A stretch of DNA of 53,480 nucleotides from a virus (taxonomy: Duplodnaviria > Heunggongvirae > Uroviricota > Caudoviricetes). This document shows, one piece after another, positions 42,001 through 48,000 of this stretch. Where the stretch lies: IMG/VR virus record IMGVR_UViG_648028025_000004, one strand, 5' to 3'. Made by a program: the position numbers. Positions within the stretch are counted from its first letter, which is position 1, and each line of letters starts with the position of its first letter.

Positions 42001-45000
42001 ACATACCGCTTCACGCAACTGGCGCCGGGGAACTACAGGCTGACAGTCCGGGCGGTAAATGCGTGGGGGCAGCAGGGCGATCCGGCGTCGGTATCGTTCC
42101 GGATTGCCGCACCGGCAGCGCCGTCACAGATTGAGCTGACACCGGGCTATTTTCAGATAACAGCGGTCCCGCGTCTTGCGGTGTATGACCCGACGGTACA
42201 GTTTGAGTTCTGGTTTTCGGAAACGCGGATTACCGATATCAGGCAGGTTGAAACCACAGCCCGCTACCTTGGCACGGGGCTGTACTGGATAGCCGCCAGT
42301 ATCAATATCAAACCGGGCCATGATTATTACTTTTATATCCGCAGTGTGAACACCGTTGGCAAATCGGCATTTGTGGAGGCTGTTGGCCAGCCGAGTGATG
42401 ATGCATCCGGCTATCTGGATTTTTTCAAAGGAGAGATAGGGAAAACCCATCTGGCTCAGGAGTTGTGGACTCAGATTGATAACGGTCAGCTTGCGCCTGA
42501 CCTGGCGGAAATCAGAACGTCCATCACGGATGTCAGTAATGAAATCACGCAGACCGTCAATAAGAAACTGGAAGACCAGAGTGCAGCGATCCAGCAGATA
42601 CAGAAGGTTCAGGTTGATACAAATAATAATCTGAACAGCATGTGGGCTGTGAAGCTGCAACAGATGAAGGACGGACGCCTTTATATTGCGGGTATCGGTG
42701 CCGGTATTGAGAATACGCCAGCAGGAATGCAGAGTCAGGTGCTGCTGGCGGCAGACAGGATTGCGATGATTAATCCTGCGAATGGCAACACAAAGCCGAT
42801 GTTTGTTGGTCAGGGCGATCAGATATTCATGAACGACGTGTTCCTGAAACGCCTGACGGCTCCCACCATTACCAGCGGCGGTAATCCTCCGGCATTTTCC
42901 CTGACACCGGACGGAAAGCTGACCGCTAAAAATGCAGATATCAGTGGCAGTGTGAATGCGAACGCCGGGACGCTCAACAATGTCACAATTAATGAGAACT
43001 GTCAGATTAAGGGGAAACTGTCAGCCAACCAGATTGAAGGCGATATAGTCAAAACAGTGGGTAAGGCTTTTCCGCGGGACTCCCGGGCACCGGAGCGGTG
43101 GCCATCAGGGACCATTACCGTCAGGGTTTATGACGATCAGCCGTTTGACCGGCAGATTGTTATTCCGGCGGTGGCATTCAGTGGCGCTAAGCATGAGAGA
43201 GAGCATACTGATATTTACTCCTCATGCCGTCTGATAGTGCGGAAAAACGGTGCTGAAATTTATAACCGTACCGCGCTGGATAATACGCTGATTTACAGTG
43301 GCGTTATTGATATGCCTGCCGGTCACGGTCACATGACGCTGGAGTTTTCGGTATCAGCATGGCTGGTGAATAACTGGTATCCCACAGCAAGTATCAGCGA
43401 TTTGCTGGTTGTGGTGATGAAGAAAGCCACCGCAGGCATCAGTATCAGCTGAATTTTATAACCCATATACGGGCGCCAGAAATGGCGCCTTTTTTATTGC
43501 AGAAAAGCGAGAGGTAATTATGCGTAAACTTTATGCCGCCATTTTGTCCGCAGCCATTTGTCTGGCCGTATCCGGTGCGCCTGCATGGGCGTCTGAACAT
43601 CAGTCCACGCTGAGCGCGGGGTATCTTCATGTCTCGACGAACGTTCCTGGCAGCGATGAACTGAACGGGATTAACGTGAAATACCGTTATGAGTTTACGG
43701 ACACTCTGGGAATGGTGACGTCATTCAGCTATGCAGGAGACAAGAATCGCCAGCTGACCCGTTACAGCGATACCCGCTGGCATGAAGATTCCGTGCGTAA
43801 CCGCTGGTTCAGCGTGATGGCGGGGCCGTCTGTGCGCGTGAATGAATGGTTCAGCGCGTATGCGATGGCGGGTGTGTCTTACAGCCGTGTGTCGACTTTC
43901 TCCGGAGATTATCTGCAGGTGACCGACAACAAGGGGAAAACGCATGATGTGCTGACCGGAAGTGATGACGGTCGCCACAGCAACACGTCTCTGGCGTGGG
44001 GAGCTGGCGTGCAGTTTAACCCGACCGAATCCGTGGCCATTGATATTGCTTATGAAGGCTCCGGCAGTGGCGACTGGCGCACTGACGGTTTCATCGTGGG
44101 TGTCGGTTATAAGTTCTGATTAGCCAGGTAACACAGTGTTATGACAGCCCGCCGGTTCAGGCGGGCTTTTTTGTGGGGTGAATATGGCAGTAAAGATTTC
44201 AGGTGTACTGAAAGACGGCACAGGAAAACCGGTAGAGAACTGCACCATTCAACTGAAAGCCAGACGGACCAGCAGCACGGTGGTGGTGAACACGGTGGCC
44301 TCTGAAAATCCGGATGAAGCCGGTCGTTACAGCATGGACGTTGAGTACGGTCAGTACAGCGTCATTCTGTTGGTGGAAGGATTCCCGCCGTCACATGCCG
44401 GGACCATCACCGTGTATGAAGATTCTCAACCCGGTACGCTGAATGATTTTCTCGGTGCCATGTCGGAGGATGACGTCCGGCCGGAGGCACTGCGCCGTTT
44501 TGAACTGATGGTGGAAGAGGTGGCGCGTCACGCTGAGGAGGCGAAGAAGAATGCCGGAGAGGCGGAGACGTCAGCGAGGAATGCCGGCATATCAGCCAGT
44601 CAGGCAGAAGAGAGCGCTGCAAATGCTGACACTTCAGCAGGGGAGGCATCGGAGTCAGCCCGGCAGGCGGCAGAAAGTGCAGCCGCTGCAAAGCAGTCAG
44701 AGGAGGCGTCCTCGTCCTCGGCCTCTGCGGCCGCTCAAAAAGCCAGTGAGTCATCACAAAGTGCAGCAGAAGCTGAATTGTCAAGAAAGACGGCAGAAAG
44801 TGCAGCCGGTAATGCAGCCAGGGATGCAACGACCGCAACAGAAAAAGCCCGGGAGTCAGCAGAAAGCGCACAGTCAGCGGAACAAAGCAGGATAGCGGCG
44901 GAAGAGGCCGTAAACCGAATCCCCACCGTGGTGGGACCTCCCGGGCCAAAGGGGGAACAGGGGCCCGCGGGTCCTCAGGGGCCGAAGGGTGATAAGGGAG

Positions 45001-48000
45001 AGCGGGGAGAGACCGGTCTGACGGGAAATGCAGGTCCACAGGGTCCAAAGGGAGATACCGGTGCGGCAGGCCCGGCAGGCCCACAGGGACCGAAAGGAGA
45101 AACAGGTGCGGCTGGCCCGGTGGGGGCAACCGGACCTCAGGGACCGAAGGGCGACCCGGGGGAGACACAAATACGGTTCCGTCTGGGGCCGGGAAACATT
45201 ATTGAGACAAACAGCAATGGCTGGTTCCCGGATACAGATGGCGCACTCATCACCGGACTGACCTTTCTTGACCCCAAAGATGCCACACGGGTTCAGGGTT
45301 TTTTTCAGCATTTGCAGGTCAGGTTTGGTGACGGGCCGTGGCAGGATGTCAAGGGGCTGGATGAAGTGGGCAGTGATACAGGCAGAACAGGAGAATGACA
45401 TGAATATACTAAAAAAACTTATGCAGCGTCTGTGTGGTTGCGGAAAGCATGATGGCCGTGAACACGTGCAGTCGCTTACAGCACAACTGCGACTGGGGCC
45501 GGCAGACATCCTGGAGTCAGATGAGAATGGCATTATTCCGGAGCAGGACAGGGTAATCACACAGGTGGTGATACTGGATACAGATAAAAAGCTGATACAG
45601 TGTGTGGTAAGACCGCTGCAAATCCTGCGTGCTGACGGGACGTGGGAAAATATTGGCGGGATGAAGTAACCCGACAGCTTCACAAAACCGGAGTCCGGCT
45701 CCGGTTTTTGTTGTCATGTCATGGTGATGTTTGTTAAGAAAGTAAAGATTGATTCATTTTGAAGGTTGAAATGTATGCTATCACCATCTTCTGTAAATTT
45801 GGGGTGTTCATGGAATTCTTTAACCAGAAACCTGACTTCTCCTGACAGTCGTATTTTATCCTCTGTAAGGGATGCAGCTGCTAGCTCGGATAATGGGGCG
45901 CAAGTAAAGGTGGGCAACAGAACATATCGTGTTGTTGTCACTGATAATAAGTTTTGCGTTACAAGAGAAAGTCATAGTGGTTGCTTTACTAATCTGTTGC
46001 ACAGGCTGGGATGGCCTAAGGGAGAGATTAGCAGGAAAATTGAGGTGATGCTGAATTCATCGCCAGTGAATAGGGCTATGGAAAGAGGTGCTGTTCATTC
46101 GAATAGACCTGATTTACCTCCTGTTGATTATGCACCGCCAGAGTTACCGAGTGTGGACTATAACAGCTTGCCTGTGCCTGGTAATGTTATTGGCAAAGGG
46201 GGTAACGCTGTAGTATATGAAGATGCTGAGGATGCAACAAAAGTCCTGAAGATGTTTACTACATCTCAAAGCAATGAAGAGGTAACAAACGAAGTTCGTT
46301 GCTTCAACCAATATTATGGTGCCGGGAGTGCAGAAAAAATATATGGCGATAATGGCGATATTATTGGTATTAGAATGGATAAAATAAATGGAGAATCGCT
46401 TTTAAATATTTCGTCCTTGCCGGCACAGGCTGAGCATGCCATTTATGATATGTTTGACAGGCTTGAGCAAAAAGGAATTCTTTTTATCGATACAACAGAG
46501 ACAAATGTCTTATATGATCGCACGAGAAATGAATTTAATCCAATAGATATATCATCTTATAATATTTCTGAACGTTCATGGAGTGAAAATCAAATAATGC
46601 AATCTTATCATGGAGGAAAGCAAGATCTTATTAGTGTGGTATTAAGTAAAATTTAGTAATTTTATCCAGTGTAGTGGATTTGTTGCATGGATGGAGGTGG
46701 TAAAAAGTGGTGTGGCTGGCAATCCAGGCCGCGTCACAGAAATGGACAATGCCGCTGAGAGACTGGCGAATGGCATACAGGCACCAGAAAAATTTCAGAC
46801 ATGACATAATGCCCATGCCAGAAGTTCTTTTTGCACCTCGCCTGTATTTATAGATAAATATAGAGTGAATGAATGAGATATGAAAGACATTACCCTTCCC
46901 CCCCCGACGTCCGCGTCCTGTCTGACAGGGGCCATATCTGTAAATACTGAAGCTGTATTATCTCCCATGCAACACACTTCAGCCTTACATGTAAGAGATT
47001 TTGCTTCCCTGTGCTCACAGAACCTCAAAGCTAATGTATTGCTAAATAGTGATGACCACGAAGTACCTATACATCAGAAAAATCCTGCTGCAATAATGCA
47101 AAATATCGACTCTAACATCAAACAGATGGCAACAGACTGGGGGATGTCGATTGAGGAGGTTGAGGTTATTATAGGGCGAGAGAAAGGCATTGTGGAACCC
47201 TCCTGCGGAGTTACCGCTAATGCTATTATGAAACTATTTCTGGACAAGGATGGCTTCAGTTACTGCTTTGAAAATGAACAGACACTATCGCTCGAGCAGC
47301 TTCAGGAGCGCCTGTCCTGTATGCCTGAATGTAAGAGCTTTGTATTACGTGTTAATGATGGTGCGCTTGGTCATGCTTACATTGTCGATATTCCCAAAGG
47401 AGAAAACTCTTGTCGTCCTGCATTCTTGTATCAGTCAGATTTAGGAGAGGGCGTCACCAGAAAGTTAAGATTTGAGGACTGGATGACGCATAAAGCATTG
47501 ACTCCGATTTTGCTGGATGATATTTGTAATTACTTCTCCTGCATGTCTCAAAATAAGACAGATTTGGAGCAGATTGCAACGTTATTTGATATTGATGGAA
47601 ATGTTAAAATGTTACGAAAGGAAAATATTCAATATCAAAAGCATGACAATTTTAGTTTCCAGTTGTTTGAGTATGACACCGATAATATTGAAAAAACATT
47701 GAGATAATAAAATCACTATGTAGTTAGCTTTTGTTAAAACTGCAATTATTTGTAAACATAATAATAAGTATTATGACGTTAAAATTTAACCATACGGTAA
47801 AATGATTCAGGAAAACCGGTTCAGCATAGCCTAGGCTGAACTTTTGAGGATATCAACGAACGGAATTTTTGAACATTTATGAGTAGATCGTTGTTGAAGG
47901 GCTTCAATGAGCATGTCAAGTTCATCAACTGCTGGTCTACGATTACGACGGTTTGATTTACCAATCAAAGCAAGTTTAAGTAGATATGGACGAGCACTTT

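Follow-up and report, generated by a model that had tools for sequence, protein, structure and literature searches.

A collagen-type side tail fibre gene and a small PfC-domain gene at the probable end of the tail operon, ahead of exchangeable effector cargo, in a lambda-like prophage of enterohaemorrhagic Escherichia coli

The fibre class closest to the one considered here, EPclA (EHEC prophage collagen-like protein A), was described by Ghosh et al. (2012; PLoS One 7:e37872; PMC3368898) and has the domain order PfN, PCoil, one collagen-like domain (Col) and PfC. The recombinant protein from O157 Sakai (rEPclA) was found to be a trimer by size-exclusion chromatography with multi-angle laser light scattering (SEC-MALLS), analytical ultracentrifugation (AUC) and circular dichroism (CD), with a Col triple helix melting (Tm) at 42 C; PCoil is an alpha-helical module that brings about trimerisation, as the PfC domain does too, and the lengths of Col and PCoil vary between copies by multiples of three and seven residues, respectively (PMC3368898). 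Here we analyse a stretch of 53,480 nucleotides (nt) from a tailed virus (Caudoviricetes; IMG/VR record IMGVR_UViG_648028025_000004), hereafter the window, in which a gene of this class (44184-45398) is followed by a gene for an 89-amino-acid (aa) protein with a PfC domain of its own, by a transcription terminator and then by type III effector genes. The initial annotation of this DNA had described the fibre as lambda-Stf-like at its N-terminus and as followed directly by an effector locus, with the 89-aa open reading frame (ORF) in the place of the distal fibre and chaperone genes of lambda.

A collagen fibre that ends in PfC and is followed by an 89-aa PfC gene is likewise known from the Stx2 phage Sp5 (ORF67/ORF68; ECs1228 and the next gene) and from phi24B (gp61), both with fibres of the EPclB type. 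EPclB fibres have two collagen domains split by a Pf2 repeat and belong to the podovirus tails of short-tailed Shiga toxin (Stx) phages, whereas the window's fibre has one Col and belongs to a lambda-type siphovirus tail module. The Sp5 fibre was located at the tail end by immuno-electron microscopy (PMC5155283), and Mondal et al. (2016; PMC5155283) described the same small gene as ORF68 of that phage, reported it to be non-essential and without a frameshift signal, and suggested that it might serve as a reservoir for tip variation. A preprint on phi24B describes a collagen shaft with a small C-terminal globular domain, together with closely related lateral fibres in the lambda-like phage 2B8. 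For lambda, cryo-electron microscopy (cryo-EM) of Ur-lambda shows a collar domain that docks on the tail tip, then a linker, then a coiled coil from about residue 102 (PMC12617516). The window's fibre resembles lambda Stf/Tfa in its collar (76% identity over the first 160 residues), its J-lom-stf position, with lom as the upstream neighbour in both, and its Ala/Ser-rich proximal coiled coil. The distal two-thirds of lambda Stf consist of a hinge, a gp37-like coiled coil and an OmpC-binding tip that needs Tfa, whereas a collagen helix and a 64-residue PfC knob stand here, and the gene after the fibre is tfa in lambda but a small PfC-domain gene here. The Ur-lambda side tail fibre is said to have been described by Hendrix and Duda in 1992.

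We consider it very likely that the late (tail) operon of a lambda-like enterohaemorrhagic E. coli (EHEC) prophage comes to its distal end in this region, which consists of an EPclA fibre gene, a PfC gene and a terminator, with exchangeable cargo thereafter. The Stf-type collar would dock the trimeric fibre on the tail tip, the coiled coil and the collagen triple helix would form a thin, flexible shaft of varying length, and the PfC knob would trimerise the chains and presumably contact the bacterial surface, a receptor-binding role that we infer. A second PfC protein of 89 aa would be translated separately from a start one base past the fibre stop and would act at the fibre's distal end, and a conserved rho-independent terminator would close the tail module. 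Beyond it would lie low-GC nleH, cif, an nleG-family gene and espJ, together with two gene relics and an insertion sequence (IS), cargo that lambdoid prophages would swap through recombination within the conserved end of the fibre module or beside it. The evidence obtained here comprises the domain identities, the conservation of the two genes, purifying selection on the small gene, the breakpoint, the diversity of the cargo and the relics (Table 1); trimerisation and the triple helix (Ghosh et al., 2012), docking by the collar (Ur-lambda cryo-EM) and the non-essentiality of the small gene in Sp5 are taken from the literature. The EPclA fibre class and its biophysics, the 89-aa PfC gene and effector cargo after tail genes are already known.

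The fibre ORF is intact and encodes 404 aa (ORF calling and translation). Pfam searches matched PF08400 (phage_tail_N) to residues 1-133 over the entire profile (E 2.9e-69), PF01391 (Collagen; E 2.4e-14) and PF06820 (Phage_fiber_C) to residues 330-393 over profile positions 1-64 of 64 (E 4.4e-35). Residues 1-93 also match the collar chain of the Ur-lambda side fibre in the PDB (9E7M/9MGH; E 1.7e-51). The lambda-Stf-like N-terminus and the short C-terminal domain of the initial annotation are both borne out. BLASTP similarity to lambda orf-401, the N-terminal part of Stf, ends at about residue 160 and the rest is collagen and PfC, with no Stf-type gp37-like tip found (orf-314 itself lay outside the comparison). 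The PDB sequence matches comprised the collar domain and generic collagen only, with no solved PfC structure among them. The low-complexity acidic repeat that had been noted does correspond to an Ala/Ser/Glu-rich region (about residues 102-243; 35% Ala, 21% Ser and 15% Glu over residues 134-243), but Tandem Repeats Finder (TRF) detected no DNA tandem repeat there, its sole unit (45 nt, two copies) lying inside the collagen part; instead, the hydrophobic periodicity is 3.5 residues (power 0.17 vs 0.03-0.06 at the other periods tested), and both composition and periodicity predict that PCoil is a heptad-type coiled-coil region. With PfN, a heptad PCoil, a single uninterrupted Col and PfC, the ORF has the architecture of EPclA as given by Ghosh et al. 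(2012), which makes the fibre a member of a known protein class, and it shares with EPclA proteins such as ECs2717 of O157:H7 Sakai the domain order, the Pfam families, the position after lom and the three-residue steps in Col length. By analogy, the 404-aa allele would also form a trimer with a collagen triple helix and a coiled coil. Two long ORFs overlap the fibre gene on the minus strand (44407-45168, 253 aa; 44874-45683, 269 aa), as orf206b does in lambda, and are most likely artefacts of GC-rich repetitive coding sequence.

The 89-aa ORF is itself a PfC gene. It matches PF06820 (E 1.8e-34) and, end to end, the PHROGs family phrog_576 ('tail fiber protein'), and it is 35% identical to the fibre knob (residues 330-393); NCBIfam gave no match for it, and none of the three collections (Pfam PF06820 only, PHROGs phrog_576, NCBIfam none) places it in the Tfa family. 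Its ATG lies one base past the fibre TGA (TGAcATG), with an AGGAG Shine-Dalgarno sequence upstream. For comparison we used two sets of 80 IMG/VR loci each, the first picked via the small protein itself (82 copies of the small gene) and the second via the fibre knob alone. The TGAcATG spacing is identical in 80 of 80 loci of the first set, a set chosen by the small ORF itself, and a complete small ORF is present in 74 of the 80 loci of the second, the remaining six comprising four at or near contig ends, one aligned from residue 5 only and one that is frameshifted. The Shine-Dalgarno sequence and TGAcATG are both conserved in 42 of 43 distinct upstream contexts. The 82 copies in the first set represent 54 DNA alleles, none of them disrupted, with a pooled ratio of nonsynonymous to synonymous polymorphism (pN/pS) of 0.125, and the N-terminal 27 or so residues that lie outside PfC, including the CGCGKHD..EH motif, are likewise conserved among the copies. 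These comparisons indicate that the 89-aa ORF is a fixed part of a two-gene fibre module, not cargo and not a replacement for the distal fibre and chaperone genes as initially annotated, and we argue from the same sequences that the small gene encodes an expressed, selected protein and is no silent spare part. A programmed frameshift joining the fibre to the small ORF was considered and rejected, the T7 run of the window being missing from most alleles and the Shine-Dalgarno sequence and start codon being conserved.

The N-terminal motif (C12-G-C14-G-K-H17-D-x-x-E-H22) falls within residues 1-27 of the small protein (45400-45480), outside the PfC domain, and may bind a metal; searches of families and structures returned nothing for it. 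A search of 1.84 billion representative proteins with a profile built from the PfC alignment returned only 87 clusters, mostly fragments from the same enterobacterial prophages, and the family is a very narrow one, essentially of E. coli, E. albertii and Citrobacter rodentium prophages. Three long repetitive proteins among the matches seem to be spurious, owing their scores to low complexity. In a distant 565-aa protein (P0143) a collagen-like run comes after four tandem modules that resemble PfC's second half (…VVVLDAD…GILQVRRADGTW.EIPALKG), and PfC-like modules may thus occur in collagen-containing fibres outside enterobacterial prophages.

The small protein is most likely an accessory of the distal end of the fibre, either an assembly helper or a tip subunit. 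A more specific version, which we put forward tentatively and hold to be possible rather than probable, is that it is the functional partner of collagen-type side fibres in Tfa's place, for instance by sitting on the C-terminal knob as a trimeric cap or template, with its N-terminal CxCxxH...H motif perhaps binding metal.

The principal alternative is that of Mondal et al. (2016), in which the 89-aa ORF is a silent reservoir cassette, a spare tip to be brought into use by recombination or frameshifting. The small ORF is indeed paralogous to the fibre's own knob, the gene is non-essential in Sp5, where the idea arose (PMC5155283), and in most alleles the 46 codons upstream of the ATG contain no stop in the +1 frame. 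A silent cassette would nevertheless sit badly with a pN/pS of 0.125 and no disruption in 82 copies of the first set, with conservation of 27 N-terminal residues that are not PfC, and with an AGGAG and a start codon kept in 42 of 43 contexts. No slippery run is conserved (the longest run of T is 3 in 27 of the 43 contexts, and Mondal et al. reported no signal either), and with only 35% aa identity to the knob, gene conversion would find little homologous DNA to work on. In one database protein (P0066) the collagen triplets run straight into a PfC of the small-ORF type, as in a natural chimera of the two genes, but its place is the very beginning of a 3.3-kb contig, so that it may have arisen in assembly, and it was set aside as ambiguous. 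We regard the reservoir as improbable, and retain the two-gene fibre module with an expressed small protein as the preferred reading.

The end of that module is marked by a terminator. Folding of the sequence after the small ORF gave a hairpin of -21.8 kcal/mol (z -3.1) with a U-run behind it; a promoter and terminator scan had missed this element, probably owing to an overlap of U-run and extended stem. Loci of the first set are conserved through the terminator and about 25 nt beyond it and become divergent 42-67 nt past the small-ORF stop, equivalent to 45711-45736 of the window, and matches to sequenced phages stop at 45736-45763, with the exception of phage cdtI, in which nleH and cif are also present and the fibre-PfC-nleH-cif block recurs at 93% identity. 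GC content changes from 0.51-0.64 in the fibre module to 0.31-0.45 past about 45700. Among the 75 first-set loci with enough downstream sequence, 42 different gene orders were counted, including NleG-family, NleB, NleH-Cif, EspK and EspF/TccP-like genes. Secretion by the LEE (locus of enterocyte effacement) type III system is known for the named effector families, and on the strength of those family names the cargo would consist of LEE type III-secreted effectors.

A conserved backbone up to a discrete breakpoint, varied content beyond it and low-GC type III effector cargo together characterise the region past the terminator as an exchangeable effector locus of EHEC prophages. It is like other lambdoid effector loci, or morons, in its low-GC effectors right after a tail-fibre module and in a shared backbone with differing cargo, and nothing essential sets it apart from them. 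The recombination boundary anticipated in the initial annotation therefore exists, with a sharp break and varied cargo when downstream junctions are compared across relatives, but it lies past the small ORF and the terminator rather than right after the fibre; since the small ORF belongs to the fixed fibre module, the fibre is not directly followed by effector genes.

A trace of a lambda-type assembly gene was found further downstream. In a tblastn search with lambda Tfa the sole significant match in the window was between Tfa residues 168-193 and 48407-48487 (77% identity; E 6.6e-9), and no full tail-fibre assembly gene was found anywhere in the window, in agreement with the earlier statement that the longer distal fibre and its chaperone are absent; the distal part of this fibre is collagen and PfC, and the assembly gene that was looked for elsewhere survives as a 26-codon relic. 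Phage 2B8, which forms plaques, combines the same fibre and small ORF with no more than a short tfa remnant. Since EPclA trimerises alone in E. coli and 2B8 forms plaques with this same layout, the absence of tfa is a property of the fibre class, for which no adjacent tfa is expected. Behind the relic the terminator element occurs a second time, and the two terminator copies bracket nleH, cif and an integrase fragment. By alignment, the same element also stands after the short tfa-like gene of 2B8, but not after lambda tfa. Of 20 secondary terminator copies within the cargo of related loci, 16 are preceded by decayed 3' ends, six of tfa and ten of the small PfC gene; decayed or frameshifted small-PfC ends occur before the secondary copies of loci L007, L009, L012, L013, L031, L037, L065, L070 and L071. 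The secondary copies and their relics look like a fossil record of repeated replacement of the tail module, and we infer that the tfa relic and second terminator of the window (48407-48600) would be the fossil left by an exchange that overran an earlier module end of lambda type (stf-tfa), the order of these events being conjectural.

The collagen part was expected to hold 25 triplets at about residues 245-320. It does contain a single uninterrupted Gly-X-Y run, which however has 26 triplets (residues 251-328; nt 44934-45167). Among the 47 complete fibres of the first locus set, 40 are of 437 aa with 37 triplets, and other alleles have 15, 31, 33, 36 or 38, giving a range of 15-38 among relatives with 37 the commonest. 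Compared with the 437-aa form, the window allele has lost exactly 11 triplets (33 residues) in frame between two GERG(D/E)TG repeats with the collagen register kept, and another allele has lost 22 triplets between two GPVGATG repeats, so that triplet number varies between prophage lineages through in-frame, repeat-mediated deletions. No functional difference is apparent between the common EPclA form (437 aa, 37 triplets) and this allele (404 aa, 26 triplets). Triplet number is fixed, at 100% DNA identity, in the O26-type genomes with this locus. The collagen part behaves as a length-tolerant spacer, and neither 25 nor 26 triplets has any special value.

Some of these observations could be turned to another reading, in which the fibre is a truncated remnant of a lambda-type Stf, whose N-terminus was joined to unrelated sequence by a deletion that took out the distal fibre and tfa, so that it would be a damaged gene: homology to lambda Stf ends near residue 160, a tfa relic lies 3 kb downstream, and the window allele falls short of the common 437-aa form by 33 residues. 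We consider this very unlikely, for the full PfN-PCoil-Col-PfC arrangement is recurrent (47 complete fibres in the first set, 40 of them of 437 aa), the class is present in phages that form plaques, among them 2B8 and cdtI, EPclA folds to a stable trimer in vitro (PMC3368898), and the 33-residue gap is an exact in-frame loss of 11 triplets. Least credible of all is that the fibre is chiefly of use to the bacterium, on its surface or secreted, as a collagen mimic like streptococcal Scl that influences adhesion to the animal host or signalling in it, hence its effector neighbourhood, for although the Gly-X-Y part is weakly similar, below cutoff, to Scl/Lcl adhesin models, the gene is intact in a probably defective prophage and Ghosh et al. 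did not exclude a bacterial role (PMC3368898), the N-terminus is a phage tail-docking collar with no secretion signal or wall or membrane anchor, the gene has the J-lom-stf position of the late operon, a related protein sits at phage tail ends (PMC5155283), the adhesin-family matches reflect only generic Gly-X-Y far under curated cut-offs, and the intactness is explained by clonal recency (100% DNA identity across isolates).

Several points weigh against the reading of a working fibre module with a functional small partner. The AlphaFold2 monomer of the 89-aa protein, from an alignment of 13 sequences, was too poor for a fold search (mean predicted local distance difference test, pLDDT, 50.9; predicted template modelling score, pTM, 0.30) and gives the proposed interaction no structural support. 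The small gene of Sp5 is dispensable for plaque formation and for lysogenisation (PMC5155283), so that any accessory role would be non-essential in the laboratory, and for the fibres of phi24B and 2B8 the literature argues against binding to BamA. In the window itself the portal gene (28638-30230) and the major tail tube gene (33182-33934) are separated by an IS66-family element (30474-32809; helix-turn-helix transposase, TnpB_IS66, DDE_Tnp_IS66; context 28638-33934), so that the genes for protease/scaffold, decoration, major capsid and head completion have no room; the prophage is thus probably defective in head assembly, and the fibre from this copy may never be assembled. Exchangeable effector loci of EHEC lambdoid prophages, placed after tail-fibre genes, were reportedly described by Tobe and colleagues in 2006. 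Our literature search found no accessible paper that places E. coli effector loci after tail-fibre genes.

A 3.3-kb segment around the fibre is 100% identical in DNA to many complete genomes of O26-type EHEC E. coli, and at least partial matches to it occur in 4918 of 5426 complete genomes. In strain E2865 the annotated order of the same region is J, lom, 'prophage tail fiber N-terminal domain-containing protein', 'phage tail fiber C-terminal domain-containing protein', nleH and cif, then two pseudogenes, an IS66-like element, a DUF1076 (NleG-family) gene, two hypothetical genes and espJ, and then chromosomal ybhB and bioA. Given this annotation of an identical region, the window is a lambda-like EHEC prophage with a right-hand cargo region, integrated beside ybhB/bioA.

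Within the cargo, the E2865 features placed at a fixed offset are exact for nleH and end one base short of the window ORF ends from cif on, consistent with a 1-nt insertion or deletion between nleH and the end of cif (46657-47707). Cif is annotated with 277 aa and the window ORF from the ATG at 46880 has 275, and some related loci have another N-terminus (MRYERHYPSPP...); since the Cif N-terminus carries the secretion signal, the difference in start may matter. The integrase fragment had no match in NCBIfam, and the same relic is also present in phage cdtI. The ISCro1-family IS66 element (48677-51292) abuts the 5' end of the NleG-family gene (51254-51928), and the preceding 48600-48676 resembles the leader of nleG genes elsewhere, from which it follows that the element has probably separated the nleG-family gene from its promoter or start.

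Table 1. Features of the fibre module and cargo region, in window coordinates.
Feature	Position	Strand	Basis
lom (Ail/Lom outer-membrane protein gene)	43520..44119	+	PF06316, E 4.7e-119; Ail/Lom annotation in identical O26-type genome
Side tail fibre gene, EPclA architecture, 404 aa	44184..45398	+	Pfam PF08400 + PF01391 + PF06820; PHROG 'tail fiber protein' families; E2865 annotation
PfN / Stf-type collar domain, residues 1-133	44184..44582	+	PF08400; lambda orf-401; PDB 9E7M/9MGH chain (residues 1-93)
PCoil, Ala/Ser/Glu-rich heptad region, predicted trimeric coiled-coil shaft, about residues 102-243	44487..44912	+	Composition; 3.5-residue periodicity; Ghosh et al. (2012)
Collagen-like domain, 26 Gly-X-Y triplets, residues 251-328	44934..45167	+	Regular-expression count; PF01391; PDB collagen chain matches; internal 23-nt and 45-nt repeats
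PfC C-terminal knob of fibre, residues 330-393	45171..45362	+	PF06820; trimerisation domain according to Ghosh et al. (2012)
Stand-alone PfC-domain gene, 89 aa: conserved N-terminal ~27 aa with CGCGKHD..EH motif, then PF06820; predicted translationally coupled fibre partner	45400..45669	+	PF06820; phrog_576; conserved junction
Rho-independent terminator hairpin (45684-45711) and conserved ~25-nt tail; tail-module end, cargo breakpoint	45684..45736	+	Folding; conservation
nleH (type III effector kinase), first cargo gene	45775..46656	+	PF22303 OspG_kinase; annotated nleH
cif (cycle inhibiting factor effector)	46880..47707	+	PF16374 CIF, E 3.5e-19; annotated cif
mEp460-type tyrosine integrase gene fragment (pseudogene)	47843..48363	-	95-96% DNA identity to integrases of mEp460 and related phages; annotated frameshifted, incomplete
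3' relic of lambda-type tfa, 26 codons + stop, in-frame stops upstream	48407..48487	+	tblastn; translation; annotated partial 'tail fiber assembly protein'
Second copy of terminator/boundary element	48546..48600	+	Direct repeats D3 and D4, 96% and 78% identity; fold -23.6 kcal/mol, z -4.5
IS66-family element (ISCro1-like: tnpA, tnpB, transposase) at 5' end of nleG-family gene	48677..51292	-	ORFs; annotation
nleG-family (U-box E3 ligase effector) gene	51352..51928	+	PF06416 T3SS_NleG, E 1.7e-44; annotated DUF1076 protein
espJ (ADP-ribosyltransferase effector), last cargo gene before ybhB/bioA flank	52827..53480	-	EspJ annotation in identical genome; weak PF09143 match

The breakpoint at a conserved terminator and the secondary terminator copies with their relics were not found stated in the papers examined. 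For annotation, our analysis means that the fibre, its small partner and the terminator are to be treated as one phage module, with the effector cargo counted from about 45737. If the 89-aa protein does act as the partner of the fibre, the fibre and this mini-knob would form a receptor-binding tip of two components, as yet undescribed and confined to phages of attaching-effacing enterobacteria. For the trading of virulence genes among EHEC, it is useful that the breakpoint lies at a conserved terminator, and the extra copies of that terminator within the cargo would provide a readable record of past module replacements.

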